UHGV virus genome: UHGV-0080089
DNA: 15,374 nt
From: a virus
Strand: one strand, 5' to 3'
Under the pieces are notes generated by a model. It was not told the DNA's origin. It saw nothing but the letters and a program-made list of their open reading frames with translations, and ran no database searches. A program made the position numbers and the translations under genes. Each line of letters begins with the position of its first letter. Positions within the stretch are counted from its first letter, which is position 1. Below are positions 1 through 14,291 of this stretch, piece after piece.

Positions 1-957
1 ACGAAATATCAGCTCCAGCTGGGAGCCATACTTCTCTTCAAATGCCACGGTATCCGCATGCAGCTCGTCGTGATGCTTTCTGCACAAAGGCAACACAAAG
101 AGGTCATGCGCTTTTGTACCCATTCCGCCCTGACCGTGACCTGTCAGGTGGTGGGGATCATCAGCAGGTTTTCCACAACATGCGCACGGCTGCGTCTTAA
201 CCCATCGCGTGTACTTTTCATTAACCCAGCGGCGACGTTTGGGGCGTAACATAAAAGACTCCGGCGACTCCGGATCCACTTTCAGCGCCAGCACCTTTTT
301 CGCTTTATCCTGGATGATGCTGGTGGCAGGAACCGAAGGCACAAGGTCACTTTCCCGGGTAACAGACGGCACAACAGGCTTCGGTAATCTCAGTGCCTTA
401 CGGGCTGCACTTTCCGGTAAGGCATCCGCCAGGTCATTACGAATCAGCCACCAGCACAGTTCCGGCATTGTCACAACGTGACTGTCATCAAAACCGAGAT
501 CCCGACGCACGACAGATAACACCCACCGGGCACAGTTATCCGTTGCCATTGATTCCAGCCGTTCCGTGAACTGATCGCGCAGTTGGTTATCACAGTGCCA
601 GCACAGACGGATTGCGCCCGGCGCGTGTCGCATTGTGGTCATATTCTCGCTGTGCCAGCCGGAATGAGGCCACTGGCAGCCTGTTTCACGAAGTAACCAG
701 CTCTCAAGGCATTCCACGCCCCCCGCCCGACGGATCACAGCCTCATTGCGGAACACGGCCCGAATGGCAGGATCATCCGCCAGCGGTTGTGATGCCGCCG
801 GAACGGCACCACTGGCAAAAGATGAATAACGTTCCGGCTCAGGCTCCAGCAGGACACGCCCCTGCATAAACAGGGGCATCAGCTCTGAACCTGGCCTGAA
901 CAATACGATCCCCATACGCGGGGCAATTTCAGGGGTCAGTAGTGCTCTCACGGTCAC
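1..957 (-). CDS. DUF968-like phage protein with HNH-like Cys/His motif; partial (C-terminus beyond left window edge); start uncertain (GTG 957 or ATG 915)
   Basis: Minus-strand frame is open from 981 down to position 1; absent from the ORF track only because no stop lies in-window. Translation of 252..1 reads MLRPKRRRWVNEKYTRWVKTQPCACCGKPADDPHHLTGHGQGGMGTKAHDLFVLPLCRKHHDELHADTVAFEEKYG (CxxC...HH...C..HH). Starts directly after the KilA-N gene stop (961..959). No convincing SD for any candidate start. Confidence 0.6.
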   Translation of the reverse strand, partial: MTVRALLTPEIAPRMGIVLFRPGSELMPLFMQGRVLLEPEPERYSSFASGAVPAASQPLADDPAIRAVFRNEAVIRRAGGVECLESWLLRETGCQWPHSGWHSENMTTMRHAPGAIRLCWHCDNQLRDQFTERLESMATDNCARWVLSVVRRDLGFDDSHVVTMPELCWWLIRNDLADALPESAARKALRLPKPVVPSVTRESDLVPSVPATSIIQDKAKKVLALKVDPESPESFMLRPKRRRWVNEKYTRWVKTQPCACCGKPADDPHHLTGHGQGGMGTKAHDLFVLPLCRKHHDELHADTVAFEEKYGSQLELIFR

Positions 958-958
958 C

Positions 959-1756
959 TCAATGAACGGTATCGAGCAGCTTTAACAGCTCAGGGAATCG
1001 GGATTCGAAGAAATGCGGCTGCGTCTCGCGCGGATTTGCAGGACTGGTGATGTTCTTGCCGAACATGCAGCCTTTCGCCGTCAGCGACCAGAATTTTTTG
1101 ATGTTGTTAATCGCGGTACGGCTGTATCGTTCGCGCTGCTCGACGATCCCCAGCTTCACCATCTGGTGATATGCCTGATTAGCTGTCAGGCGGATACCAT
1201 ACTGCTTCAGCAGTGCACTCAGTGACAGCGTGGGGCGGCTTGAGCCATCAGGCGCGTCAGCAGGAGCATCAATGGCATAGCGCGGTGCCAGATTCGGTAA
1301 GCCAACAGCCTCCTGGAGTTTCTGACAGGCACCAAGCACTGAAGAGTTAGACAGGTTTAATTCCCGGCGCATAAAGTCCAGCAGAATCACACCAGCCTGC
1401 ATCTTGTCAGCAGCCTGTCCGGATAATTTTTCCGGTGCGCTGGTTACCATGTCGAAAGTACGGATCACCTTCAGATGGAATGACGGGCTGATCCACATTG
1501 CATAGGCATACACCAGTTCTTTGCAGACATACGTCCCCTGGTTATTTCCGCCACGAATAACGTTAACTGACTCTATATTGACCGAGTTGCAAATCTGCAA
1601 CTCGCTTATTAAACGCTCAGTTTGCTCATTGCGGAGCCAGAATGCAGGCTTATGCTTATCCAGAGAACCAGCAGCCCTGTGCAGATCGTTCAGGCTGTAA
1701 CGCCCATAAGCATCACGACGAACTTCAATACCATCAATGACCATCAGATTATTCAT
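959..1756 (-). CDS. KilA-N domain protein (phage antirepressor-like/Bro-N-like)
   Basis: ORF track 959..1789; chosen start ATG 1756 (MNNLMVIDG...) preceded by strong SD (AGAGGAGAAACGAAGT-ATG). N-terminal region MVIDGIEVRRDAYGRYSLNDLHRAAG...YVCKELVYAYAMWISPSFHLKV fits the KilA-N/APSES pattern from memory. Confidence 0.7.
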   Translation of the reverse strand: MNNLMVIDGIEVRRDAYGRYSLNDLHRAAGSLDKHKPAFWLRNEQTERLISELQICNSVNIESVNVIRGGNNQGTYVCKELVYAYAMWISPSFHLKVIRTFDMVTSAPEKLSGQAADKMQAGVILLDFMRRELNLSNSSVLGACQKLQEAVGLPNLAPRYAIDAPADAPDGSSRPTLSLSALLKQYGIRLTANQAYHQMVKLGIVEQRERYSRTAINNIKKFWSLTAKGCMFGKNITSPANPRETQPHFFESRFPELLKLLDTVH

Positions 1757-1775
1757 ACTTCGTTTCTCCTCTTGA

Positions 1776-2165
1776 TCAGGCGGCTGCACCCGCCGTTTTC
1801 TCGTACTTACTGATAGTGATCTCGACCTTCCCTTCCGGGATAACCGGTCCCCACTCCACCAGCATTCTTTTCACCTGACTGTCGTCTTCCCACACCCCCG
1901 CGTGGGTCAGGGCGTCAAACAGCGCCTTGTTATAGTTGTCCAGATCGCGGATCCTGTTATCCGGAGGAAACAACACGATCTCCACTGAAGCAGGTGCCGA
2001 CGTTGGTTTCGGCAGACGACGTAACTGCTCAACTATTGCTGCGCACGCCGCGCTCTGGAATTTTCGCCCCGCCGCGCTTATCAGGCTCTTACCAGCAAAC
2101 GCCCCTTTGTTGGGGTGTCGCCAGTACGTGTTCACGCTGGGCGGAAAAGGCAGGATCAGCTTCAT
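1776..2165 (-). CDS. rusA: RusA-family Holliday junction resolvase
   Basis: 129 aa; LPFPPSVNTYWRH N-terminus and DNRIRDLDNYNKALFDALTHAGVWEDDSQV core match the RusA pattern (LPWPPSNNRYY...RRDLDN..KA.FDALT.AG.W.DD.QV). ATG 2165 overlaps upstream stop (ATGA). Confidence 0.85.
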   Translation of the reverse strand: MKLILPFPPSVNTYWRHPNKGAFAGKSLISAAGRKFQSAACAAIVEQLRRLPKPTSAPASVEIVLFPPDNRIRDLDNYNKALFDALTHAGVWEDDSQVKRMLVEWGPVIPEGKVEITISKYEKTAGAAA

Positions 2166-2488
2166 ACTTTCAGGCCCCTCTCATGTAACCAGTGGGTTGC
2201 ACGCAGCCTTGCGTTTTCCTCACCGGCAAGCAGTGAGCGGATAATCCCGACCGCCTCGCTGTCGTCGTCCTTCACCGCGGTATGAAGCGTGATGCCCCGG
2301 GCCACGCCACGCTTTATCGTGATGACGCCTTTTTTCTCCAGTGCGCGAAGATGCTCCACCGCTGCATTCACTGAACGGTATCCCAGCATGGTTGCCACCT
2401 CCTGATTGGTTGGCGGGAAGCCACGTTCTTTCTGATAAGAAATCAGCATATCCAGCACCTGCTGCTGGCATTGAGTTAACGTCGTCAT
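2162..2488 (-). CDS. LexA N-terminal DNA-binding-domain protein (winged helix only, no S24 peptidase domain)
   Basis: 108 aa; LTQCQQQVLDMLISYQKERGFPPTNQEVATMLGYRSVNAAVEHLRALEKKGVI closely parallels the LexA N-terminus ([53 protein letters not shown]); no Ala-Gly/Ser/Lys protease module follows. ATG 2488; stop overlaps rusA start. Confidence 0.7.
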   Translation of the reverse strand: MTTLTQCQQQVLDMLISYQKERGFPPTNQEVATMLGYRSVNAAVEHLRALEKKGVITIKRGVARGITLHTAVKDDDSEAVGIIRSLLAGEENARLRATHWLHERGLKV

Positions 2489-3138
2489 GCCGCCATCTCC
2501 CTGACCAGTTTTTCTGCCTGCTGGCGAACCTGCGCCAGAAAGGCCTCACCACATGCCTCAAGTTCATCGCGCCCGATGTAGCTGATTGCCGGTCCCTTCC
2601 AGGTCTTGTCGAAAACAGCAATAGCACCAGCGAAGAAAGCGCCTGTCGGCACCTGCTTCTCATCCTTCGGGATAAACCAGGCAGGCAGTTCAAAACCAAT
2701 ACGCCCGCGAATAAAAGCAATATGATCTGCATCTTCCGGCCACCACACTTCGCTGGTGGCAGCTTTGATCAGGAAAACATAGCGCCCGCCTTTATCACGC
2801 ATGGCACTGGCATGCTTCATGATGTAACGCATGCCGGTGATGTATTGCCCCTCATGCTGACTGGCGCGGCTGTATGGGGGATTACCAAAGGCAGCACCTT
2901 TAAGCTCCGCAAGGCGTTCTGACCAGTCATGCGCCAACGCGTTGTCTTCCGCCGTGTAATACGCAGCACATTTGGCGTTATCACCGTCAGTAAACAGATC
3001 CAGAACAAACGGGCCAAACAGAGTGTTAATTCCCCAGAAAATGTTGTCCGGCGTGCGCCACTGATCGCCCACTTCCTTCAGTTCATGGGCTGGTTTGTTC
3101 CGCAGTTCCGCCAGCGCCTGGCAATATTTATTACTCAT
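2485..3138 (-). CDS. Phage N6-adenine DNA methyltransferase (Dam-like, phage_N6A_met type)
   Basis: Catalytic FGNPPY motif and N-terminal WRTPDNIF...NAKC..YYTAED pattern. Start taken as ATG 3138 (MSNKYCQ...), overlapping the upstream TAA (TAATG); the track's longer 3171 start is GTG and overlaps the upstream gene by 33 nt. Confidence 0.8.
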   Translation of the reverse strand: MSNKYCQALAELRNKPAHELKEVGDQWRTPDNIFWGINTLFGPFVLDLFTDGDNAKCAAYYTAEDNALAHDWSERLAELKGAAFGNPPYSRASQHEGQYITGMRYIMKHASAMRDKGGRYVFLIKAATSEVWWPEDADHIAFIRGRIGFELPAWFIPKDEKQVPTGAFFAGAIAVFDKTWKGPAISYIGRDELEACGEAFLAQVRQQAEKLVREMAA

Positions 3139-3626
3139 TAAGCCCCCACGTAATTCCCTGAGAGATACCACTCTTCACCTGATGCAGCCCGCTTACTGCT
3201 TTTCCGTAAACACCGTTCACGACGTGCCAGAAAATTGTTTCGTTCTGGCTGGGAGTGGCTTTCACGGAATGCCGCCATCCACACCGTTGCAGCACGACGG
3301 TATAAGCCCCTGGACTCCAGTTCTTCCGCCTGGCGGGTCAGGCACAAAATCACCCGCGGGTCGTTAGTGCCGACATAGAAATTGCGCACAGGTCTGGTTT
3401 CACGAACTGGTTGTGGTTCCGGATCCTGCGCTCTCTCAGTCAGGCGCGGGAAATGTCTGTGTGTATCTCCTTCACAACGGTGAGCCACACGCCCACTCTG
3501 ACGTAACTTGCTTGCTGACTGCAGAACGCGCTGCCGTGAGTAACCTGCAAAAGCATCCGCAATGTCTCCGGAAGTACAGCCCGGATGGGCTTCAATGAAT
3601 TTCTGAACGTCATTCAAAAGACTCAT
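3138..3626 (-). CDS. Hypothetical phage protein, YfdN-like (~162 aa), putative N-terminal winged-helix
   Basis: ORF track 3138..3632 (GTG); preferred start ATG 3626 with SD GGGGGTG 6 nt upstream, 2 nt after the replication gene stop. Size and position (between replication gene and methyltransferase) match yfdN of CPS-53 as recalled. Confidence 0.6.
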   Translation of the reverse strand: MSLLNDVQKFIEAHPGCTSGDIADAFAGYSRQRVLQSASKLRQSGRVAHRCEGDTHRHFPRLTERAQDPEPQPVRETRPVRNFYVGTNDPRVILCLTRQAEELESRGLYRRAATVWMAAFRESHSQPERNNFLARRERCLRKSSKRAASGEEWYLSGNYVGA

Positions 3627-3628
3627 GC

Positions 3629-4570
3629 TCACCCCCTGAATCCTGCCGGGATCTGGCTGTAGTCCACATTGTCGTAACTGGCTTTGAAGTACGGGTCTTC
3701 GCGTTTTTCTGTGTACGTGCTGACGGACGGCGATAAGCGCAGGGAAAGCTCATCCCATTTTTCCCGCAGCTTCGACGGGCTGAGCACGTTACGGCACCAG
3801 AACGGATCGCGGCTGACGCGGCTGTACATCTCGCAGATTTGTTTGTGAGTACGACCATCCTGCACACACATCAGGCGAATTTCGTTTGCCCAGGCTGTCC
3901 AGTTCGGTTCTTTGGGACGAACCACCTCGCCGTCACATTCGGCAGCCTGCTCGTACAGGGCGATGATTTTTTTCCAGAGCCACTGTGCGCAGGTCAAATC
4001 ATCCTGCGTCCCCCACTGGCGCTTTTTAGGGCTGAATACAACCGCATCAGGATGGCGAGTTAAAAAATCCTGTTCAGCCGTCTGCGTGTCCGGTTGCGAA
4101 GCGTCCGGACGAGAAGGTTTTTTATCTGACGGATCATGTTTTGATTTTACTGACGGATCCCCGCCAGATTCTGACGGGTGAAAACCCGCTTTTTTGCCAG
4201 ATTTCGACGCATCAAATTTTGACGGGTCAGATTTTGATGCGTCAGATTTTGACGGGTCAGAATCTGACAGTTGAGAAAATGCCGCTGCCTGAAGCTTCGC
4301 AACGTTAAGCTGATAAACATTCGACGCATTGCGGTTACCCTGGCGACGCGCCTTACGCGTTAACCAGCCTTCTGCTTCCAGCCGTGCGATAGCCGTTCTG
4401 ACGGTACTCATCCCCGCGCCAATCTGACGGGCAATGGTTTCAATTGATGGCCAGCACACACCTTCGTCATTACTGAAATCAGCCAGGCGGGCCATAATTG
4501 CCACGCTGGATAACTTCATGCCTGATGCAGCGCAACCATCCCATACATAGCCGGTTAATTTAGTGCTCAT
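3629..4570 (-). CDS. Phage replication initiation protein (lambda O-like architecture: N-terminal HTH, internal iteron-encoded linker, C-terminal domain)
   Basis: 313 aa; ATG 4570 with SD AGAGGT; N-terminal wHTH (SVAIMARLADFSNDEGVCWPSIETIARQIGAGMSTVRTAIARLEAEGWL); central peptide repeats SDPSKSDASKSDPSKFDASKS encoded by 15-bp DNA direct repeats. Confidence 0.7.
   Translation of the reverse strand: MSTKLTGYVWDGCAASGMKLSSVAIMARLADFSNDEGVCWPSIETIARQIGAGMSTVRTAIARLEAEGWLTRKARRQGNRNASNVYQLNVAKLQAAAFSQLSDSDPSKSDASKSDPSKFDASKSGKKAGFHPSESGGDPSVKSKHDPSDKKPSRPDASQPDTQTAEQDFLTRHPDAVVFSPKKRQWGTQDDLTCAQWLWKKIIALYEQAAECDGEVVRPKEPNWTAWANEIRLMCVQDGRTHKQICEMYSRVSRDPFWCRNVLSPSKLREKWDELSLRLSPSVSTYTEKREDPYFKASYDNVDYSQIPAGFRG
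4122..4273. repeat. Iteron-like direct repeats (~15-bp units AGATTTTGACGGGTC / AGATTTTGATGCGTC) inside the replication gene; candidate replication origin
   Basis: Four contiguous 15-bp units at 4214..4273 (aaattttgacgggtc, agattttgatgcgtc, agattttgacgggtc, agaatctgacagttg) plus spaced copies at 4165..4180 and 4198..4213 and TGACGG cores at 4127 and 4152. Confidence 0.6.
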
Positions 4571-4918
4571 GACCGACCTCTATTTCCCTGAATTTACGAC
4601 GAAACTGTTCGAGCGGACTGAAGCATTCATGCTCATAACCTTCGCGGAGGTAGATAACCCGTTGTGTTTCCGGCTCCCAACGAATGACTCTGACGGGCAC
4701 TCCGTAGTGATCTTTGAACCAGCGGTTAACTTGTCGCAAAGGACTGTCTCCTTCTGCCGGTTGAAATCACCCACAGCCCACTCTGCAAAGCTGTGGGTTA
4801 CAATTTCCCTGTCACCTGGTACATTCACTGCATAGCAATATTCCACCTTCGCTTTTCCACCCGGAACAGGAAGCGCAATCAGTTGCGAGCGACGGTAGTG
4901 TGTTGTTAAACTGTTCAT
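4563..4918 (-). pseudogene. Frameshift-disrupted small phage gene (~115 aa if restored) between the cII-position gene and the replication gene
   Basis: Track ORF 4580..4918 starts protein-like ([55 protein letters not shown]) then turns into low-complexity sequence; a second frame open from 4766 to stop 4562..4560 reads [65 protein letters not shown] with no ATG. Frame switch lies within ~4750..4770, next to an 8-bp-stem hairpin at 4771..4798. Confidence 0.4.
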
Positions 4919-5523
4919 GCGTTAGTTTCTCCACAGTCACGACACGCTACGGCGCCCGGAGCTGCACACTCGCGGGCGTCATTACTTTCTGAAATGCAAA
5001 AAATTTTGTAGACCAGTGCTGCATGCTCCTGCAGCTTCGAAATTGAGAGGTAGAGCTCGTCATTAATTGCTGTCTTCTCATGCGGTTCCACTACACCGTC
5101 TTCGATTGCTGAACGAATCTGTTTTGAATAACTGCCGATCTGTTCAATGACTTCCAGCAGACGCTGGTTAATATCGGCGTTGTCCACATCCTCGACGTCA
5201 GGAAGAGACACAAAGACGCCATTTGCAGACTGCGCCACAGCATCAGCAATGAAGTGAGTTCCACCAGCACGTTGCAAAATCATTGCCCATCCCAGCGGGA
5301 AAATCTGATCGCCATCGGCACGAAGGCGGTTAAATAATGCGTTCTCTGTTACATCCAGCCAGTCAGCAGCTTCAGCGTAACCCCCCGGCAACGCTGCGAT
5401 AGTTTTTCTGACAGCTTTCACGTACCACTCAGGCTGTTTGTCTACTTTCCAGTGATGCTTACCCACGGTTAGCCTCATCGTTCTGTGGTTTCTGTTAATC
5501 GATTTATCCATTAGATTTTTCAT
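4915..5523 (-). CDS. Early regulatory protein in the cII position (possibly YdaT-like); C-terminal Cys cluster
   Basis: Track ORF 4915..5580 begins at GTG; first ATG at 5523 (MKNLMDK...) chosen, alternative ATG 5511 overlaps the cro-like stop. Weak SD for both. C-terminus [13 protein letters not shown]. Family assignment is by position after the YdaS-like gene, not sequence. Confidence 0.55.
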
Positions 5524-5704
5524 AAAGCTCAGGTTTAAATGGCAACCGTCCGCAAGTTCTATATGCAGCTTCTGCTGCACGTCCTTTTGGAATTAACTGG
5601 CCCGGACGGTTTCGCCACTGATAAACGGCTTCAGTTGTTATGCCGAAAAAAGCAGCAACTTTCTCAATACTGCCGAAGTAGCTTTCGATATCGTCAGTTG
5701 TCAT
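5504..5704 (-). CDS. Cro-like / YdaS-family HTH regulator
   Basis: 66 aa; ATG 5704 with strong SD (GGAGGG 6 nt upstream); HTH region VAAFFGITTEAVYQWRNRPGQLIPKGRAAEAAYRTCG; divergent from cI across a 97-bp operator region. Confidence 0.75.
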   Translation of the reverse strand: MTTDDIESYFGSIEKVAAFFGITTEAVYQWRNRPGQLIPKGRAAEAAYRTCGRLPFKPELYEKSNG

Positions 5705-5801
5705 ACGCCCTCCAAACTAAGTTTTATTAGATGCTAATTACAAATCTATCTTTGGTCAATAAAAACTAAGATTACTTAGTAATTAAAGAAATGGTGCTCC
5801 T
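5705..5801. promoter_or_regulatory. Immunity-region divergent promoter/operator region (OR-like)
   Basis: Perfect 16-bp palindrome ACTAAGattaCTTAGT at 5765..5780; related imperfect site ACTAAGttttATTAGa at 5716..5731. Minus-strand promoter candidate for the cro-like gene: -35 TTGACC (5759..5754), 17-bp spacer, -10 TAGCAT (5736..5731). Confidence 0.6.
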
Positions 5802-6428
5802 ATGGAAACGGTTGGTCAGCGTATAAAAGCTCTGAGAAGAGTTACCAGAACGTCCCAGAAAGAATTGGGTAAATTTTGTGGAGTAAGCGACGTTGCTGTG
5901 GGGTACTGGGAGAAAGACATCAATACCCCTGGTGGGGAGGCACTTTCGAAATTAGCGAAGTTCTTCAATACGTCAATAGATTACATTCTTTATGGTGCTG
6001 AGTTTGAAGGCAAACTCGTCACAAACATGCGCAGAGTTCCTGTAATATCGTGGGTTCAGGCTGGGCAGTTTACTGAGTGCAGGGCAGCAGAAGTGTTTAG
6101 TGAAGTGGACAAGTGGGTAGATACATCATTAAAGATTGGTGATAACTCATTTGCATTAGAGGTTAAAGGTGACTCCATGACTAACCCTAATGGCCTCCCA
6201 ACAATACCAGAAGGCGCAACAGTGATTGTAGATCCAGATGCAGAACCTCGTCATGGAAAAATAGTCATCGCTCGACTTGATGGAACAAACGAAGCTACAG
6301 TAAAAAAATTAGTCATCGATGGCCCTCAAAAGTTTTTAGTGCCATTAAATCCTCGGTATCCCAACATCCCTATCAATGGTAATTGCCTTATCATTGGTGT
6401 AGTCAAAGGAGTTCAATACGAACTCTAA
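5802..6428 (+). CDS. cI: CI-type prophage repressor (HTH_XRE + S24 LexA-like peptidase domain)
   Basis: 208 aa; N-terminal HTH (QKELGKFCGVSDVAVGYWEKD); Ala-Gly in VISWVQAGQF; Ser nucleophile in GDSM and Lys in VKKLV with S24 spacing. Confidence 0.9.
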   Translation: METVGQRIKALRRVTRTSQKELGKFCGVSDVAVGYWEKDINTPGGEALSKLAKFFNTSIDYILYGAEFEGKLVTNMRRVPVISWVQAGQFTECRAAEVFSEVDKWVDTSLKIGDNSFALEVKGDSMTNPNGLPTIPEGATVIVDPDAEPRHGKIVIARLDGTNEATVKKLVIDGPQKFLVPLNPRYPNIPINGNCLIIGVVKGVQYEL

Positions 6429-6439
6429 GACCTCTCTTC

Positions 6440-6510
6440 TCTAACTAAGGCACCGAACTAAGAAAAGTTTGGTGTTTTCTCTTGCCATAATAACTAAGTT
6501 AAGTTAGATT
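6440..6510 (+). promoter_or_regulatory. Second operator cluster downstream of cI (OL-like) with candidate plus-strand promoter
   Basis: ACTAAG half-site motifs at 6444..6449, 6457..6462 and 6493..6498; promoter-like -35 TTGCCA (6482..6487), 17-bp spacer, -10 TAGATT (6505..6510). Confidence 0.4.
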
Positions 6511-6675
6511 TTATGTCAAAGATAACGAACAGGCAGGACGCCCACGAAGTAGCCGCCTGGGGCATATGAAGTCCAGGATGATTCGTTAGCAACAAAAAAG
6601 CGCCCTACAGGACGCTTAGCTCTTTAACAATCTGGTCCCCATCAACAAGTAACTGATAACTTGAGGAGATGTGAA

Positions 6676-6882
6676 ATGCACAAAACAGAACCCAAAATCG
6701 TCGCGCCTGGCTACACAGATGAGGAAATTTATGAGTGGATGACAAAGAAGCTGGCAGCTATAAACCAGCTTCGTGAAGTGCTGTCTTATCGACAGGAAAC
6801 AATAGACTCCTTAAAAAAACTGGATCAGGAAATCACGGTTTTATCACAGGATGTTACTTTAGATATTGTGCAGACAAATTAG
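6676..6882 (+). CDS. Hypothetical small protein (68 aa), AT-rich accessory gene downstream of cI
   Basis: ATG 6676 preceded by GAGGAG (6663..6668) at 7-nt spacing; track ORF begins at TTG 6661. No recognisable motif and not arginine-rich; 3' end overlaps the convergent 144-aa gene by 29 bp. Confidence 0.55.
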   Translation: MHKTEPKIVAPGYTDEEIYEWMTKKLAAINQLREVLSYRQETIDSLKKLDQEITVLSQDVTLDIVQTN

Positions 6883-7288
6883 GATCCCATTCATTTTCGT
6901 CAAAATCATCAAAGTGATGAATTTGTGATCTCCAGTCTCGATAATCTAAAAATTTCTGGGCGGTTACGCTTATTTTATCAAGTGTGAGTTCATCCTGAAT
7001 TGAAAGAAGAAGTTCATCAAATTTCATCTCATTAATCTGTTTTGGCATCCAGTGATGCTTCATCAGAATAAGGTGAACCAGAGCCTTTTTCCCATTCAAC
7101 TGATTATAGGGAGTGCCGAATTTCTTCCGGTGCTCATGTAAGACAAGGTCCAAAAGAGTAAGTAATGTTGCCCTTGATTCAACTTTGCTTATTTCGACTG
7201 ATGACACTACCCCACTGATTTCAATGCCCCGATACTTTCCAACATTTTCACAGTGGGATTTGTACAGCGTATAGATATTACCGGACAT
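6854..7288 (-). CDS. Hypothetical protein (144 aa), AT-rich accessory gene convergent with the 68-aa gene
   Basis: ATG 7288 with AAAGGAAAAGAA upstream; about 35% GC versus about 52% in flanking phage genes; acidic C-terminus (HHFDDFDENEWDP); no family recognised. Confidence 0.6.
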   Translation of the reverse strand: MSGNIYTLYKSHCENVGKYRGIEISGVVSSVEISKVESRATLLTLLDLVLHEHRKKFGTPYNQLNGKKALVHLILMKHHWMPKQINEMKFDELLLSIQDELTLDKISVTAQKFLDYRDWRSQIHHFDDFDENEWDPNLSAQYLK

Positions 7289-7303
7289 TTCTTTTCCTTT
7301 TGC

Positions 7304-7352
7304 GTTGTTGGGGATAACCAGATTAACCGAATCCTTGTTGTTGGGGAATAAC
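7304..7352. repeat. Tandem imperfect direct repeat (GTTGTTGGGGATAAC at 7304..7318 and GTTGTTGGGGAATAAC at 7337..7352, ~33-bp period) just upstream of the 144-aa gene
   Basis: Read directly from the sequence; on the minus strand each copy ends in an AAGGA-like element, the second forming the RBS of the 144-aa gene. Confidence 0.5.
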
Positions 7353-7574
7353 TAGGTCCACCTCGCCTGATGTGGCTAAAAGCAGGCACATAACAGCTAA
7401 GTATTTTCAACCAGAGAGAATCCTTAGCGTTGTGGTGAATGCGGCTCAGCGCACGCGGGTTAAGGTTGAGGCTGACAGTCGACCTTCTGTGGATACCCAC
7501 CCGCCTGGTGTGCAACCTTCGCCAGGCACCGGGAGGCACCCGGCACCACAACTTTATGCTGTGTGTAGTCTTGG

Positions 7575-7619
7575 CGGTACCAGCTTGTACCCTTGCTTCC
7601 GGCTGGTACCGTCCTTTTT
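7575..7619 (+). terminator. Candidate intrinsic terminator / attenuator hairpin upstream of the yfdP-like operon
   Basis: 10-bp perfect stem CGGTACCAGC (7575..7584) / GCTGGTACCG (7602..7611), 17-nt loop, then TCC + TTTTT (7615..7619). The loop is long for a canonical terminator. Confidence 0.4.
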
Positions 7620-7756
7620 ACAAAACAGAGAAGAGCATCACCGGACGACGGGCTCATAACCCAATCCATCCGGGCGGCAGTCACCGCAGGTGTTCTTCTC
7701 TGTTTTGTGGAGAAACTAACCGACCTTGCAGGGTCGATATGATGAGGAGCAGCAAA

Positions 7757-8119
7757 ATGGCTAGCGAACGCAGTACTGATGTGCAGGCATTTATCGGGGA
7801 GCTGGACGGCGGCGTATTTGAAACCAAAATCGGCGCAGTTCTCAGTGAAGTCGCTTCCGGTGTGATGAACACGAAAACCAAAGGTAAGGTCTCGCTCAAC
7901 CTGGAAATCGAACCGTTTGATGAGAACCGAGTGAAAATCAAACACAAACTCTCATATGTTCGCCCGACTAACCGCGGGAAAATTTCCGAAGAAGACACCA
8001 CCGAAACGCCGATGTATGTCAATCGCGGTGGTCGCCTGACTATTCTGCAGGAAGACCAGGGACAGTTACTGACTCTTGCCGGTGAACCTGACGGAAAACT
8101 CCGCGCAGCAGGTCGTTAA
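7757..8119 (+). CDS. YfdP-like early-left phage protein (120 aa), function unknown
   Basis: Track ORF 7439..8119 is a long GTG-initiated extension; chosen start ATG 7757 (MASERSTDVQ...) has GAGGAG (7744..7749) at 7-nt spacing. Size and position before the YfdQ-like gene match CPS-53 yfdP. Confidence 0.65.
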   Translation: MASERSTDVQAFIGELDGGVFETKIGAVLSEVASGVMNTKTKGKVSLNLEIEPFDENRVKIKHKLSYVRPTNRGKISEEDTTETPMYVNRGGRLTILQEDQGQLLTLAGEPDGKLRAAGR

Positions 8120-8184
8120 TATCGTTTTTAATTAACTGATTATTTATCTCATCACTGAATATCTTTATATAGTGAGGACTTATT

Positions 8185-9009
8185 ATGTCTCAGAACTTAG
8201 ACGCAACCGCAATTAATCAAATCCATGCCCTTATTTCTGCTCAGGGTGTTAATGAAATTATCAGTAAGATTGGTGCCGATGCTGTGGCATTGCCTGAGAA
8301 TTTCCGCATTCATGATCTGGAAAAATTTAATTTAAATCGCTTCCGTTTCCGTGGTGCGCTTTCCACTGCCAGCATCGATGACTTTACCCGTTATTCTAAA
8401 GATCTTGCAGATGAAGGCACCCGCTGCTTTATCGATGCTGATAATATGCGTGCCGTCAGTGTGCTTAACCTGGGTACTATTGATGAACCAGGTCACGCAG
8501 ATAACACCGCCACACTCAAACTGAAAAAGACAGCACCGTTCTCTGCTCTGTTGTCTGTTAACGGCGAGCGTAACTCCCAGAAGTCACTAGCAGAATGGAT
8601 TGAAGACTGGGCCGACTATCTTGTGGGCTTTGATGCTAATGGTGACGCTATTCAGGCAACAAAAGCGGCTGCGGCTGTCCGTAAAATCACGATTGAAGCA
8701 AACCAGACCGCTGATTTTGAAGATAATGACTTCAGCGGCAAACGCTCCCTGATGGAGTCTGTCGAAGCGAAGACCAAAGACATTATGCCAGTGGCATTTG
8801 AATTTAAATGCGTTCCGTTTGAAGGTCTGAAAGAACGTCCGTTTAAATTACGCCTCAGTATTATCACTGGCGATCGTCCTGTACTGGTTCTGCGCATTAT
8901 TCAGCTGGAGGCGGTGCAGGAAGAAATGGCTAACGAATTTCGTGATCTGCTTGTTGAGAAATTCAAGGACAGCAAAGTAGAAACCTTTATTGGTACTTTC
9001 ACCGCCTGA
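8185..9009 (+). CDS. yfdQ: DUF2303-family protein, YfdQ-like (274 aa)
   Basis: ATG 8185 with SD GAGGA at 6-nt spacing; sequence and length recalled as matching E. coli CPS-53 YfdQ (memory only, not searched). Confidence 0.75.
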
Positions 9010-9021
9010 TTTCATTACTGC

Positions 9022-9043
9022 AAATGCCCCTGCGGGGGCATTT
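9022..9043 (+). terminator. Hairpin downstream of the yfdQ-like gene (possible partial terminator)
   Basis: 9-bp stem AAATGCCCC / GGGGCATTT with 4-nt loop, 13 bp after the stop; T-tract limited to the stem's own 3' TTT. Confidence 0.35.
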
Positions 9044-9136
9044 ATGGAAACGTAATTTACTCAATAATCGCCGGATGGTGAGGGATTCTTTTTGCCAGAA
9101 TTCAGCGCGGTGCAGCGCATATACGTGGAGAACAAA

Positions 9137-9673
9137 ATGTCATTTATTAAAACTTTTTCCGGGAAGCATTTTTATTATGACAGGATAAATAAAGACGACA
9201 TCGATATTAACGATATCGCGGTTTCCCTTTCAAATATCTGTCGCTTTGCCGGTCATCTTTCGCACTTCTACAGCGTCGCCCAACATGCGGTTCTTTGCAG
9301 CCAGCTGGTGCCGCAGGAATTTGCTTTTGAAGCGTTAATGCATGATGCAACAGAAGCGTATTGCCAGGACATTCCCGCACCACTGAAACGCCTTCTTCCT
9401 GACTATAAACAAATGGAAGAAAAAATAGACGCCGTAATCCGTGAGAAATACGGGTTACCCCCAGTTATGAGTACGCCCGTGAAATATGCCGATCTCATCA
9501 TGCTGGCAACCGAACGCCGCGATCTCGGGCTTGATGATGGCTCTTTCTGGCCTGTACTGGAAGGTATCCCGGCAACAGAGATGTTCAACGTGATTCCACT
9601 GGCACCGGGCCATGCCTACGGGATGTTTATGGAACGCTTTAACGAGTTATCGGAGTTACGCAAATGCGCATGA
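9137..9673 (+). CDS. yfdR: HD-domain phosphohydrolase, YfdR-like (178 aa; 5'-deoxynucleotidase family)
   Basis: Chosen start ATG 9137 (MSFIKTF...) with GGAGA SD; HD motif in ALMHDATEAY plus upstream His (FAGHLSHF..QH); length matches YfdR as recalled. Confidence 0.8.
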   Translation: MSFIKTFSGKHFYYDRINKDDIDINDIAVSLSNICRFAGHLSHFYSVAQHAVLCSQLVPQEFAFEALMHDATEAYCQDIPAPLKRLLPDYKQMEEKIDAVIREKYGLPPVMSTPVKYADLIMLATERRDLGLDDGSFWPVLEGIPATEMFNVIPLAPGHAYGMFMERFNELSELRKCA

Positions 9674-10026
9674 ATATTTTCGAAATGGAAGGGTTTCTTC
9701 GTGGGAGATGTGTACCGCGAGATCTGAAAGTAAATGAAACAGATGCTGAATACCTGGTGCGTAAATTCGATGCGCTTGAAGCTAAATGTGCAGCACAGGA
9801 AAACAAAGTAATACCAGTGTCAACTGAACTGCCACCAGCAAATGAAAGTGTTTTGTTATTCGATGCTAACGGAGAAGGCTGGCTAATTGGCTGGCGTTCT
9901 CTCTGGTACACCTGGGGACAAAAAGAAACCGGAGAATGGCAGTGGACATTTCAGGTCGGGGACCTTGAAAACGTCAATATCACTCACTGGGCAGTAATGC
10001 CAAAAGCACCGGAGGCTGGAGCATAA
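9664..10026 (+). CDS. YfdS-like protein (120 aa; DUF551-like), function unknown
   Basis: ATG 9664 with GGAG 8 nt upstream; overlaps the yfdR-like stop; Trp-rich C-terminal half. Confidence 0.6.
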   Translation: MRMNIFEMEGFLRGRCVPRDLKVNETDAEYLVRKFDALEAKCAAQENKVIPVSTELPPANESVLLFDANGEGWLIGWRSLWYTWGQKETGEWQWTFQVGDLENVNITHWAVMPKAPEAGA

Positions 10027-10331
10027 TGACCACTTTTACCGACAAAGAACTGATTAAAGAAATTAAAGAGCGTATCAGCAGCCTTGACGTGCGAGACGAT
10101 ATTGAGCGCCGTGCTTATGAAATCGCACTCCTATCTCTGGAAGTAGAACCAGATGAACGCGAAGCTTATGAATTATTCATGGAAAAGCGTTTCGGTGACT
10201 TAGTAGATCGTCGGAGAGCAAAAAACGGCGATAACGAATACATGGCATGGGATATGACTCTCGGTTGGATCGTCTGGCAGCAACGAGCTGGTATCCATTT
10301 TTCAACAATGTCACAGCAAGAGGTGAAATAA
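10026..10331 (+). CDS. YfdT-like small protein (101 aa), function unknown
   Basis: ATG 10026 overlapping upstream TAA (TAATG), GGAG upstream; size and position match CPS-53 yfdT. Confidence 0.6.
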   Translation: MTTFTDKELIKEIKERISSLDVRDDIERRAYEIALLSLEVEPDEREAYELFMEKRFGDLVDRRRAKNGDNEYMAWDMTLGWIVWQQRAGIHFSTMSQQEVK

Positions 10332-10681
10332 TGGAGCCATACAGCCTCACACTCGATGAGGCCTGTCATTTTCTCAAGATATCCAGACCGACTGCCATTA
10401 ACTGGATACGCACAGGGCGTCTTCAGGCAACACGCAAAGATCCCACTAAGAATAAATCTCCTTACCTCACAACACGACAAGCCTGCATTGCGGCTCTTCA
10501 GTCTCCGCTGCATACTGTCCAGGTGAGCGCGGGTGATGGCATAACAGAGGAAAGAAAATGTCACTCTTCCGCAGAGGTGAAATATGGTACGCCAGTTTCA
10601 CATTGCCGAACGGTAAAAGATTTAAACAGTCTCTTGGAACAAAGGACAAAAGGCAGGCGACAGAACTCCATGACAAGCTAA
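10331..10681 (+). CDS. xis: Excisionase-like HTH protein (Xis/AlpA type, 117 aa); 3' end overlaps int by 124 nt
   Basis: ATG 10331 (TAATG overlap with upstream stop), SD GAGGTG; [29 protein letters not shown]; lies directly upstream of int. C-terminal extent uncertain. Confidence 0.6.
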
Positions 10682-11721
10682 AGGCTGAAGCATGGCGGGT
10701 CAGCAAACTTGGTGAAATACCTGATATAACGTTCGAGGAAGCGTGTGTCAGGTGGCTTGAAGAGAAAGCACATAAAAAATCACTGGACGATGACAAAAGC
10801 CGGATCGGATTCTGGCTTCAACATTTCGCAGGGATGCAACTAAGAGACATCACTGAATCAAAAATTTATTCAGCGATGCAGAAAATGACAAACCGGCGTC
10901 ATGAGGAAAACTGGAAACTCAGGGCAGAAGCATGCAGAAAAAAAGGGAAACCTGTTCCAGAATACACGCCAAAACCAGCGTCCGTTGCAACGAAGGCTAC
11001 GCATCTTTCATTTATAAAGGCCCTGCTAAGAGCCGCAGAGCGTGAATGGAAAATGCTTGATAAGGCACCAATTATTAAAGTGCCTCAACCGAAGAATAAA
11101 CGTATCCGCTGGCTGGAGCCTCATGAAGCACAAAGGCTGATTGATGAATGTCCGGAGCCATTAAAGTCTGTTGTTGAATTTGCACTGGCAACAGGCTTAA
11201 GACGCTCGAACATCATCAACCTTGAATGGCAACAAATAGACATGCAGCGCCGGGTGGCATGGATAAACCCGGAAGAGAGTAAATCAAACCGCGCAATTGG
11301 CGTTGCGCTGAATGATACTGCATGTCGCGTATTGAAAAAACAAATCGGGAATCATCACCGTTGGGTATTTGTTTACAAGGAAAGCTGTACCAAACCAGAC
11401 GGAACGAAAGCGCCAACGGTCAGGAAGATGCGGTATGACGCAAACACAGCCTGGAAAGCGGCGCTGAGACGAGCAGGTATTGATGATTTCAGATTTCACG
11501 ACTTGAGACACACCTGGGCAAGTTGGCTGGTTCAAGCCGGAGTCCCGTTGTCAGTGTTACAGGAAATGGGAGGCTGGGAGTCTATCGAAATGGTTCGTCG
11601 ATATGCTCACCTCGCACCTAATCACCTTACCGAACACGCACGGCAAATAGACTCGATCCTGAACCCATCGGTCCCAAATTTGTCCCAGTCAAAAAATAAG
11701 GAAGGTACTAATGATGTGTAA
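10558..11721 (+). CDS. int: Tyrosine integrase (P22 Int / KplE1 IntS type, 387 aa)
   Basis: ATG 10558 with SD GAGGAA; N-terminus [34 protein letters not shown] typical of this integrase group; catalytic pattern ...LRRS..., HDLRHTWAS, ...RRYAHL; stop 14 bp from the tRNA-Thr 3' fragment. Confidence 0.9.
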
Positions 11722-11735
11722 CTTATTGATTTAAA

Positions 11736-11781
11736 TGGTGCCGATAATAGGAGTCGAACCTACGACCTTCGCATTACGAAT
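11736..11781 (-). other. 3' fragment (anticodon loop to CCA end, 46 nt) of a tRNA-Thr(CGU) gene; att core / junction remnant, not an intact tRNA
   Basis: Minus strand reads ATTCGTAATGCGAAGGTCGTAGGTTCGACTCCTATTATCGGCACCA: anticodon loop TTCGTAA (CGT), variable loop, T-arm GTAGG-TTCGACT-CCTAT, acceptor 3' strand TATCGGC-A-CCA. Upstream sequence (CTGGTCTCGCTA) does not continue as D-arm or acceptor 5' strand. Resemblance to E. coli thrW is from memory. Confidence 0.75.
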
Positions 11782-11946
11782 TAGCGAGACCAGTGATTCA
11801 AGATGTTCACAGCCGTTTCAGCATACAATAAAAAACATATAAAAATCAACAAAATATACATAAATGCAGTATCAAGATGTTTCGCCTTGTTTCTGATGAT
11901 ATCATGTTAAATGTGTACCCCGCTGTGTACCCAAAAGGCTGAAGAT

Positions 11947-13266
11947 ATGACTTTTACTATTACACAAGACAGACAATTGGCTTCATTGACCGTTACTAAA
12001 GAAGAAAAAGAAATCTTATTTGCTGTAAAATCTAAAGCTGGGGGAGGACTCTTTATACGTGTTCGTTATGGTAGCGACAATAAAAGCTGGATTTATCGTT
12101 ATCGAATAGCTCAAAAGCCAGCTAAATTAACACTAGGTAGTTACCCTGCCATGGGATTAGCTCAAGCTCGTAAAGCTCATGCGGATGCAATTGAATTAGT
12201 AAGAAAAGGTATAGATCCTCGTCATATTAGAAAAAATGAAAAACAAAAAAATGAACAAATGATTATTTACTCTGAATTATGGAAAGATTGGATAGAATTC
12301 AGAAAGACAAGTAAACCAATTAGCACCAGAACCCTTGCAGATTATGAAGGGACTTATCACCGCCACCTTGAAAAAGCATTAGGAAACCTTCGCATTGACG
12401 AACTTACCAAAAGCGTTATTTTTGAACATCTCAGTAATGTAAGAAAAACCAGTTCTGAAGCAGTTCGTAAAGGATTAATTATTCTAAATATGACTCTTGA
12501 TCATGCCAACTTACAGGGTATGCTTGAGCATAACCCAGCACGACTGCTCAAACCAGCAATGTTTGGTGCATCGATGAATAAACCTCGCGAGCGATGGCTT
12601 CCTGAGAATGAACTCCGGATGCTATGGAAGGCTTTGGATGATGCTACTGTTGGAGGAGGCTCCATTGCATCTGGTGGCTATGGAGTTTCCTCTAGTGTGG
12701 TATTATCTCATTCTGTCGCAAATGCACTCCGTTTGATTATTTTCACAGGAGTGCGCCGCTCTGAAGCGGCACAAATGCGCTGGGATCAAATTAATGGAGA
12801 GCGTTGGACCATACCAGCCACTAAAAATGGGAAAAGCCATATTGTTACTTTACATCCGTATATGCTTTCTTTAATAAAAACACAACGTGAATTCACTGAA
12901 GGTGCATATGTTTTTGGTTCTACTAGCAAACCTGGCTTTCCCATCACAAATGACGCTCTGACTCGCGCGTTAGAAAGGGTTCGCTCTAAGTATCTAGCTG
13001 AACTTACTCCATTTTCTCCTCATGATCTGCGTAGAAGTGTTGCGACTGGATGCGCTGAATACCTTGATGCTCCAGAGCGCCTAATAGAGTTACTGTTAAA
13101 TCATGTACCCAAAGACCGTTTAATACGAACATATCAAGTCGGACAACAAGCTGAAAAATTAAAAAATTTATTTATAGAATGGGGGAATTTTATTATGAAT
13201 AACGTCATTACTGTGCAGAAGAATGCTCCGGATAATGTTATTCATATAAAATTTGGGAACAGATGA
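11947..13266 (+). CDS. int: P4-family tyrosine integrase (DUF4102-type N-terminal domain), about 38% GC
   Basis: Track ORF 11911..13266; preferred start ATG 11947 (MTFTITQDRQ...) with AAAGG SD; N-terminal arm-binding-like region (GGGLFIRVRYGSDNKSWIYRYR...LGSYPAMGLAQARK); catalytic pattern ...GVRRSEA..., HDLRRSVATG, ...LIRTYQVGQ. Confidence 0.85.
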   Translation: MTFTITQDRQLASLTVTKEEKEILFAVKSKAGGGLFIRVRYGSDNKSWIYRYRIAQKPAKLTLGSYPAMGLAQARKAHADAIELVRKGIDPRHIRKNEKQKNEQMIIYSELWKDWIEFRKTSKPISTRTLADYEGTYHRHLEKALGNLRIDELTKSVIFEHLSNVRKTSSEAVRKGLIILNMTLDHANLQGMLEHNPARLLKPAMFGASMNKPRERWLPENELRMLWKALDDATVGGGSIASGGYGVSSSVVLSHSVANALRLIIFTGVRRSEAAQMRWDQINGERWTIPATKNGKSHIVTLHPYMLSLIKTQREFTEGAYVFGSTSKPGFPITNDALTRALERVRSKYLAELTPFSPHDLRRSVATGCAEYLDAPERLIELLLNHVPKDRLIRTYQVGQQAEKLKNLFIEWGNFIMNNVITVQKNAPDNVIHIKFGNR

Positions 13267-13358
13267 TAAAAATACATGCATGGTCTGAGATACCCTGTCT
13301 ACTCGACCATGCAGTATGGTTCAACTAAATCAGTCACAACAAGAAATGATTAGTTTTA

Positions 13359-14207
13359 TTAGATATTGTATGGGATTATTTCTGGATAATACTTCGCAAT
13401 GATGTCATTTAGCCGATCAATCAGTTCCGGTTTTCTGAACGTGATGTGCGCGGAGCCCTTCTTAAAGTATCTGATGCTGAACATCTCATCTTCATAGCAT
13501 GTTTTACCCTGAACAGACTGGATGTGCTCATCCAAACGAATGATGATGTTTTCCCGGTTGTCGGGAATGGGGTTGCCACTGAAGAGATGCAGCATCCTTT
13601 CCAGGTCGGCAACCCGGTCAGTCTGTTGCCCGGTGATAAGATGAAACCCCCACCGGTCCCACCTCACCAGGTTGTTGACGATAATTTTACTGCCAAATTT
13701 GCAGGGGCAATTGGTTTTGTAATTCCAGCTCAGTCCCCTGAAGACGTTGATCACCCCTCGCTCAAACACCTCATCCTTATTCTGGTGTAGTTGTTCGAAT
13801 GTGCTCAGAATGTTCGCTTCACTGATTTCCGGAAAATTATCGTACTCCAGTGACCGGTACCATGTATCACGGGCCTGTGCATCCATTAAGGAAAGTATCC
13901 CTGAACGTTGCATCAGGTCACGCCAGATTTCGCGGTCAAGGTTCCGGGTGATGGCTTTCATTGCCATTTCCGGTTTCTCCATCAGCCAGCAGCCGCAGCG
14001 AAAATCCTGTTTCATGGCCCAGTCCAGTGCAGTTTTACCTCCGATGCTTTCCGTCAGCACTGAAATTTCAGCCAGTTGCCGGATAAGCATTTCGGCTTGT
14101 TGCAGTGCTGCATACCGTACCGTCACAACGTGTCGGATACTGGTTGAGCCGATAACGTCCGTATGCCCGTTGACCACTTCCGGACGGGAGACTGTGATAT
14201 CAGACAT
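13359..14207 (-). CDS. Hypothetical protein (282 aa), island cargo of unknown function; two CxC motifs (FRCGCW, NCPCKFG)
   Basis: ATG 14207 with AAGGA upstream; no family recognised with confidence; convergent with int2 and directly downstream of the truncated Ag43 fragment. Confidence 0.6.
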   Translation of the reverse strand: MSDITVSRPEVVNGHTDVIGSTSIRHVVTVRYAALQQAEMLIRQLAEISVLTESIGGKTALDWAMKQDFRCGCWLMEKPEMAMKAITRNLDREIWRDLMQRSGILSLMDAQARDTWYRSLEYDNFPEISEANILSTFEQLHQNKDEVFERGVINVFRGLSWNYKTNCPCKFGSKIIVNNLVRWDRWGFHLITGQQTDRVADLERMLHLFSGNPIPDNRENIIIRLDEHIQSVQGKTCYEDEMFSIRYFKKGSAHITFRKPELIDRLNDIIAKYYPEIIPYNI

Positions 14208-14291
14208 AATCGATATTCCTTTTTGCAGATAAATGAAAATGCCAGACCTGTTCAGGCTGGCGTCAGTGGAATGAAGTCTGGTGAGTAAGAC

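Follow-up and report, generated by a model that had tools for sequence, protein, structure and literature searches.

Why should the middle of a phage replication gene be built from short tandem repeats, and is it the encoded peptide or the DNA itself that keeps them there? The question is raised by a stretch of 15,374 nucleotides from the virus genome UHGV-0080089 (hereafter, the window), which, according to its open reading frame (ORF) listing and to Pfam and PHROG searches, carries the early and immunity region of a lambdoid prophage. One of its genes encodes a protein of 313 amino acids (aa) that matches PHROG 391, "replication initiation O-like," with E = 8e-136. This agrees with the original prediction, made from the letters of the sequence, that a candidate replication origin composed of 15-base-pair (bp) iterons lies at 4122-4273 inside a replication initiator gene, in the manner of lambda O and ori-lambda. 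We find the array at 4118-4270, so that the earlier coordinates were essentially correct, and we consider it probable that this segment is the phage replication origin, in whole or at least in the part bound by the initiator, situated within the gene for its own initiator. The argument turns on how the repeats are conserved: they appear to be kept as DNA and not as protein, and it is therefore very probable that the gene's own product binds there to start replication.

Read on the coding (minus) strand, the array comprises eight in-frame units spanning codons 101-151: five tandem 15-bp units, one separate unit, and two degenerate half-site units (Table 1). The copy number first proposed, six to eight, thus holds at its upper end. 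Tandem Repeats Finder likewise returns the predicted 15-bp unit, with 4.3 copies at 4198-4261 and 81% matches (88% when the unit is taken as 30 bp), and the repeat search adds a further related copy at 4150-4179. The peptide encoded by the eight units, LSDSD-PSKSD-ASKSD-PSKFD-ASKSG ... PSESG ... PSVKS ... PSDKK, agrees with the SDPSKS/DASKS linker repeats described in the prediction. At the level of DNA, each unit consists of one variable codon followed by TCA RAW TCT GAC, and what is conserved is an 11-bp core, the imperfect palindrome TCA-R-A-W-TCTGA; neighboring cores in units 1-5 are set apart by a variable 4-bp spacer. The palindrome is near-perfect in units 1 and 6, and GTCAGAATCTGAC at 4256-4268 is a perfect palindromic 13-mer. 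Unit 6 follows unit 5 after an 18-bp gap, 33 bp from it centre to centre, and stands within the block of DNA that varies least in the family; the half-site units are of the form CCGTCAG...

This concentration of related sites is well beyond chance. The pattern TCARAATCTGAC, with two mismatches or fewer, matches the 15.4-kb window at 12 places, where 2.76 ± 1.7 would be expected; a count of 12 was not attained in any of 200 shuffles, and ten of the 12 matches fall in 4163-4268. The replication gene is 99-100% identical at the DNA level to those of phages Kati, SfII, and SfIV (100% for Kati), and the 46-kb Kati record places 10 of its 17 pattern matches in the same 105 bp of the gene. The other seven are scattered, in number close to the 6.55 expected by chance, and no second motif cluster occurs elsewhere in that record. 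The 18-bp gap between units 5 and 6 also holds a terminator-like hairpin on the plus strand, antisense to the replication gene (4175-4197, CGGGTGAAAACCCG then CTTTTTTGCC), which may be a product of chance.

Conservation was assessed by scanning species-representative genomes with the N-terminal domain (N-domain) of the protein. The scan gave 80 loci, of which the 67 with intact genes were used (69-100% N-domain identity), from Escherichia/Shigella, Citrobacter, Kosakonia, Buttiauxella, Yersinia, Pantoea, Tatumella, Rahnella, Providencia, Proteus, and others; for most counts Citrobacter phage phiNP was added to these, giving 68 genes. Units were defined by peptide alone, which avoids circularity (n = 352). 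Serine at unit position 2 is encoded by TCA in 324 of the 352 units (92%). At position 3 every lysine is AAA (203/203) and every glutamate GAA (72/72), and serine at position 4 is TCT (235) or TCC (35) in 270 of 271 cases. The conserved serine and lysine columns of the adjoining N-domain, by comparison, use mixed codons, up to six of them, as serine column 42 illustrates (TCC 23, TCT 14, TCA 12, TCG 10, AGC 5, AGT 3). Mean pairwise identity of synonymous codons is 0.90 in the block of units 6-8, against 0.42 over 74 N-domain columns. Many columns of that block are invariant, among them five at the half-site units (GAT 68/68, TCA 58/58, GTA 67/67, TCA 63/63, GAT 59/59), and in the unit 6 block TTT, GAC, TCA, and GAA are identical in all loci that have the residue.

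The encoded residues vary under this fixed DNA. Unit position 3 may be K, E, N, or D, charge reversals included, while the DNA keeps R-A-W, and the residues after it range over S/F/T/P and then D/G/E/V. Over 348 units from 67 loci, the information content forms one contiguous block of 10-11 bp that runs on without regard to codon phase, TCA-R-A-W-T-C-T-G-A, with 1.0-1.9 bits per position, wobble positions included; the symmetric positions of the core are the conserved ones, and the spacer codon is poorly conserved at all three positions. Since synonymous codons are near-fixed and residues vary, the nucleic acid is the conserved entity, and the repeats are, on this comparative evidence, under selection as DNA and not as peptide. 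The original prediction had named a conserved peptide over unconserved DNA as the finding that would speak against an origin; the opposite is seen, with synonymous positions near-frozen across the 68 loci. The locus is thereby a clean natural case of DNA-level selection overriding the protein code within a gene, and the comparison of synonymous-codon identity between repeats and flanking domain may be reused for finding origins in the initiator genes of other phages.

Mosaic relatives of the gene show which part of the protein the repeats belong with. The repeat type is inherited with the N-terminal domain and not with the C-terminal domain (C-domain). In phage phiNP the N-domain and the 15-bp array are of the same kind as in the window, but the C-domain is a different one (Phg_2220_C); the repeat DNA of phiNP is almost identical to that of the window although the N-domain differs at many third codon positions. 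Conversely, mEp460_4F5 joins an unrelated N-domain to the C-domain of the window (DNA identity 96.6%, extending to window position 4128), and its repeats are six of the type GGTCAAARTG at 23-24-bp spacing. The Rep of the E. coli FORC_029 prophage, 57% identical overall and with a diverged N-domain, keeps the 15-bp spacing around a different inner palindrome, GTCAA-N3-TTGAC, and SfV orf39 combines another HTH_36 domain with its own set of repeats at 21-24-bp spacing. The phiNP and FORC_029 Rep proteins, the "primosomal protein I" of mEp460_4F5, and SfV orf39 all share a three-part design (winged-helix N-domain, intragenic repeats, C-domain); they differ in repeat sequence and spacing according to the type of N-domain, with 15 bp in the window, phiNP, and FORC_029.

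The segment 4092-4128 (..KKPSRPDASQP..), between the array and the C-domain, is common to the phiNP-type and mEp460_4F5-type mosaics, whose matches end at 4092 and 4128; it looks like a recombination joint at which modules of N-domain plus origin and of C-domain are exchanged. The array itself is also changeable. Copy number among relatives, which the original prediction had proposed to compare, does vary in 15-bp steps among near-identical genes: linker length changes by five residues at a time, giving proteins of 303, 313, 318, and 323 aa, and the 68 genes contain from 2 to 8 peptide-defined units. Rare E. coli variants have lost the array partly or wholly by deletion between repeats, and are probably decaying prophages; a 10-bp direct repeat, TTCGACGCAT, at 4203-4212 in the array and 4320-4329 in the wing-coding part of the N-domain fits the end points of one such variant, of 274 aa.

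The protein itself is divided accordingly. Its N-domain matches Pfam HTH_36 (E = 4e-11, 42.9 bits), with weak matches to DnaD_N and RP-C. An AlphaFold2 model built with a 35-sequence alignment gives this domain four helices and a beta-wing, with a block-mean predicted local distance difference test (pLDDT) score of about 65-89. Foldseek relates the modelled domain to winged-helix dimers of the MarR/ArsR type, some of them DNA-bound, all with E-values above 0.001. Folds of this kind typically form dimers that bind palindromes. The repeat-encoded stretch, aa 103-167, is modelled with pLDDT below 50 and is probably a disordered linker; the repeats may be tolerated inside the ORF because this linker appears to accept almost any residue, in which case it is the DNA that dictates the protein sequence at this place and not the other way round. 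The C-domain, whose helical part covers roughly aa 186-280, reaches a pLDDT of 83.7 when modelled alone and has no significant relative among solved structures; PHROG 277 and 9773, both "O-like," match this part of the protein.

The resemblance to lambda is one of layout. In lambda and the Shiga toxin (Stx) phages the origin lies in the middle of gene O and consists of iterons and an AT-rich tract; iterons number four in lambda and six in Stx phages, where the two extra iterons amount to 13 extra residues in the initiator (PMC7466680). The window gene likewise has an array of dyad sites in mid-gene with a candidate AT-rich tract after it, as in ori-lambda and its Stx variants 933W and P27; its repeats likewise add residues to the initiator and differ in number between relatives, and it follows cro and cII in the early rightward operon, the same position as in lambda. 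Unlike lambda, with its 19-bp iterons, the window has 15-bp units (11-bp core plus 4-bp spacer) arranged as 5 + 1 full sites and 2 half-sites; the AT content of the candidate tract is modest, a P-type helicase loader is absent, and the N-domain belongs to HTH_36, with no match to Phage_rep_O (PF04492) in the Pfam search. The analogy drawn in the original prediction is thus borne out for intragenic dyad sites at a domain junction and fails for the DNA-binding domain and the helicase loader: the arrangement appears to be that of lambda, but the DNA-binding end is not assigned to the lambda O family. Phage phi80 offers a second comparison. Its gp15 has a homologous C-domain (36% identity, E = 4e-25), gene 15 also follows cII, and its GenBank record annotates four gp15-binding sites between the N- and C-domains. 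Unlike the window protein, gp15 has a Phage_rep_O N-domain (88 bits), its sites are 15-16 bp long at 21-bp spacing and unrelated in sequence to the window repeats (GGGAAnnnTTCCC-type), and gene 14, the P analogue, lies directly downstream, where the window has a PerC-like gene. The layout is known already from lambda and phi80; what is added here is the unusually clear signal of DNA over protein and, as discussed below, a new reading of published host-regulator boxes in E. coli K-12, the "SrsR boxes."

A working model can be assembled from these parts. The repeats with their dyad symmetry, the selection on DNA, the co-inheritance with the N-domain, and the division into domains are observed; we infer that the initiator binds the sites, in what stoichiometry, where the DNA unwinds, how helicase is recruited, and that the segment acts as an origin. 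Once the prophage is induced, early transcription running rightward from the promoter on the cro side would yield the 313-aa initiator. Its winged-helix N-domain, probably as a dimer, would bind the 11-bp imperfect palindromes, five of them abutting at 15-bp spacing and a sixth 33 bp away, with the two half-sites lying beyond it. The resulting nucleoprotein complex would destabilize the adjoining AT-rich stretch (approximately 4111-4150), which is strictly conserved and contains GATC, and the C-domain, as a homologue of that of phi80 gp15, would recruit the host helicase machinery. The candidate unwinding segment stands just downstream, in the direction of transcription, of the full iteron sites, which is the expected position. 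Two GATC sequences, at 4132-4135 and 4156-4159, each precede a half-site unit within the AT-rich block; their aspartate, wherever a locus has the residue, is always encoded by GAT (68/68 and 59/59), and aspartate in the tandem units is mostly GAC. Together with the Dam methylase encoded by the phage itself, the conserved GATC sites offer a hint that methylation or SeqA might control the origin. If the model is right, it supplies a specific candidate origin for a group of prophages that is very common among enterobacteria, including the Shigella serotype-converting phages SfII and SfIV.

Several observations weigh against this model. The published protein-DNA data for these repeats concern a single protein, the host LysR regulator SrsR, in K-12. 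Synonymous-site conservation proves selection on the nucleic acid and leaves the ligand unspecified. With 70% AT, the segment 4111-4150 ranks only near the 95th percentile across the window, a modest flank for an origin. The abutting palindromes are spaced at 15 bp, about 1.4 helical turns, compared with 21-24 bp in phi80 and other repeat sets, and simultaneous occupancy of all the sites is not obvious. The replication gene contains no DnaA box at one mismatch or fewer, and DnaA boxes were rejected as part of the origin for this reason. Finally, searches of the window and of the 46-kb Kati record recognized no gene for a helicase, helicase loader, or primase, and helicase recruitment therefore goes unexplained. 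Dedicated genes of this kind include lambda P, phi80 gene 14, and P22 gene 12. Neither the window nor the Kati record has a second replication gene; the 313-aa gene is the sole recognizable one, and the replication module appears to consist of the initiator alone. The downstream PerC-like gene was considered as a hidden analogue of P or gp14 and rejected, as it has no similarity to phi80 gp14. Such a loader-less module would be a useful case for learning how a lone initiator recruits the host helicase.

Among the other explanations, the one that denies the repeats any function as DNA fares worst. It would have a low-complexity Ser/Asp/Lys linker arise by slippage and be kept for its peptide, for an overlapping ORF, or for messenger RNA (mRNA) structure, and there is something to each version: the stretch is low in complexity and has very low model confidence, slippage or recombination alters the number of copies, reading frames other than that of the gene stay open through the repeats, and the RNA folds much better than shuffled sequences (z = -5.8). 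A peptide linker predicts free synonymous drift, however, and the codons are near-fixed while the amino acids vary; very recent horizontal spread of the segment alone might mimic this, but the variable spacer codons argue against it. The good folding is what any array of palindromes would show. When 18 sequences were folded together with RNAalifold, the covariation term was +0.18 and 1 of 27 pairs was compensated; A with C, which do not pair, is the commonest combination at the central symmetric positions, and a search of the whole window against Rfam gave no family above threshold; on these grounds an RNA element was rejected. An overlapping gene was rejected as a by-product of repeat composition, given that ATG-initiated ORFs of at least 50 codons occur inconsistently in the two alternative frames, in just 30 and 42 of the 67 loci. 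A reading without DNA-level function is, by these comparisons, already largely refuted, and we regard it as very improbable. A less remote alternative, though still an improbable one, is that the initiator binds the repeats for autoregulation or copy control, as a roadblock to transcription of its own gene or by handcuffing, and that replication starts elsewhere. All of the evidence for initiator binding fits this equally well, the AT-rich flank is weak, and sequences resembling DnaA boxes, absent from the gene, are enriched elsewhere in the window, with four at 7309-7714. On the other side, the Kati record offers no second motif cluster, the equivalent sites of phi80 are annotated as gp15-binding sites and those within the lambda and Stx genes are the origin (PMC7466680), and the near-invariant AT-rich GATC block accompanies the array whichever C-domain is attached.

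A further explanation involves a host protein, the one for which binding to these repeats has been demonstrated in vitro. In E. coli K-12, genomic SELEX (systematic evolution of ligands by exponential enrichment) found the strongest peak of the LysR-type regulator SrsR (YgfI) at the "yfdO/yfdP spacer"; DNase I footprinting there showed 66 bp of protection over four 11-bp boxes (TCAaATTTTGa, TCAGATTTTGa, TCAGATTTTGa, TCAGAgTcTGa), and overexpression of SrsR raised yfdONMLK mRNA (PMC9181523). In our alignment these four boxes are units 1-4 of the array (window 4212-4267), with one base different in unit 1, and K-12 is identical to the window over 4080-4337 except for two substitutions. Both the peak and the footprint therefore fall on the DNA discussed here, and the repeats might primarily be SrsR sites by which the host, or the prophage, controls transcription of downstream prophage genes. 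Orthologues of SrsR exist beyond E. coli, with named matches in Citrobacter, Kosakonia, Yersinia, Hafnia, and Sodalis. The difficulty lies in the context. K-12 retains only window 3629-4337 in its CPS-53 prophage, the first approximately 78 codons and everything upstream being deleted, and because its replication gene is truncated at the N-terminus the array is read there as intergenic. The same DNA that PMC9181523 treats as a promoter element lying between genes and belonging to a host regulon consists, in the window, of internal repeats of a phage replication gene, conserved with its N-domain across many genera. In the window and in intact phages it lies approximately 300 bp inside the ORF and is neither promoter nor intergenic, so that the intergenic appearance is confined to the truncated copy. 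No sigma-70-like promoter was found in 3500-5000, which counts against transcriptional control from this site; an internal promoter within the array region was rejected on the same result. A single host factor also leaves unexplained why the repeats change with the phage N-domain, and prophages of Providencia, Proteus, Pantoea, Tatumella, and Rahnella conserve the array equally well, genera from which none of the named SrsR orthologues in 56 clusters comes, a weak point in that the source is named for only approximately a quarter of database proteins. At other SrsR targets just 7-8 of 11 positions agree with the box, and the footprints used 10-40 uM protein (PMC9181523). That the repeats serve primarily as SrsR sites thus seems to us a poor bet, on a par with autoregulation, and an origin within the initiator gene is the reading we prefer.

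SrsR binding and iteron function are nonetheless mutually compatible. It is conceivable, if on balance unlikely, that the array has two readers, being at once the phage origin and the highest-affinity genomic target of the host SrsR. Were this the case, SrsR acting on origins of the SfII/SfIV/CPS-53 type would link prophage replication or early-gene expression to host physiology, and would compete or cooperate with the initiator; the top published target of the K-12 SrsR "regulon" would then be the fossil of a phage origin. In any event, the site with the strongest "SrsR box" signal in K-12 is reinterpreted here as the repeat array of a truncated phage replication gene, which alters how that regulon may be read.

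Table 1. Positions of the replication gene, its repeat units and domains, and neighboring genes in the window.
Feature	Coordinates	Strand	Codons or residues	Basis or remark
Replication initiator gene	3629-4570	minus	313 aa	ORF listing and translation; PHROG 391
N-terminal winged-helix DNA-binding domain (predicted)	4274-4570	minus	aa 1-99	Presumed iteron reader
Candidate iteron units 1-5, tandem	4196-4270		codons 101-125	Repeat finders, pattern search, information profile, codon fixation
11-bp core, unit 1	4257-4267			TCAGATTCTGA (coding strand)
11-bp core, unit 2	4242-4252			TCAAAATCTGA (coding strand)
11-bp core, unit 3	4227-4237			TCAAAATCTGA (coding strand)
11-bp core, unit 4	4212-4222			TCAAAATTTGA (coding strand)
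11-bp core, unit 5	4197-4207			TCGAAATCTGG (coding strand)
Candidate iteron unit 6	4163-4177		codons 132-136	Core 4164-4174, TCAGAATCTGG
Half-site unit	4142-4156		codons 139-143	CCGTCAGTAAAATCA
Half-site unit	4118-4132		codons 147-151	CCGTCAGATAAAAAA
Candidate DNA-unwinding segment	4111-4150			70% AT; least stable 40-mer of the gene
C-terminal helical domain (predicted)	3629-4075	minus	aa 166-313	Presumed replisome-recruiting module
PerC-like regulator	3138-3632	minus		Directly downstream of the replication gene
Dam methylase	2485-3171	minus		
DUF4222 gene	4580-4918	minus		
cII-like gene	4915-5580	minus		
cro	5504-5704	minus		
cI-like repressor	5802-6428	plus		

The prophage is, by its gene content and sequence matches, a lambdoid element of the SfII/SfIV/CPS-53 type. 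The 313-aa gene is the homologue of the SfII and SfIV "replication protein" and the intact form of yfdO in the CPS-53 prophage of E. coli K-12. At least a partial match to it occurs in 3357 of 5426 complete E. coli genomes, and a near full-length match in 1576. No origin is annotated around the replication gene in the GenBank records inspected, our literature search found nothing relevant on replication or the origin of SfII or SfIV, and a paper on the "Eru" replication regions of Stx phages does not mention iterons. Beyond the Dam methylase gene the minus strand continues with genes for a protein with a LexA DNA-binding domain, RusA, and a KilA-N protein, and the right part of the window holds yfdP-T-like genes and an integrase.

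Two features outside the replication gene may be recorded here. DnaA-box-like 9-mers (TTATCCACA, one mismatch or fewer) number 13 in the window, against 3.6 ± 1.9 expected, a count that none of 200 shuffles reached; they span 169-14661, including 4927-4935 and 5180-5188, and four lie on the minus strand within 400 bp to the right of cI (7309-7317, 7371-7379, 7488-7496, and 7706-7714). Two tyrosine-integrase genes, at 10558-11721 and 11911-13266, adjoin one another in the same orientation, one being the prophage's own and the second a different one; their side-by-side placement suggests tandem integration of two elements at the site.

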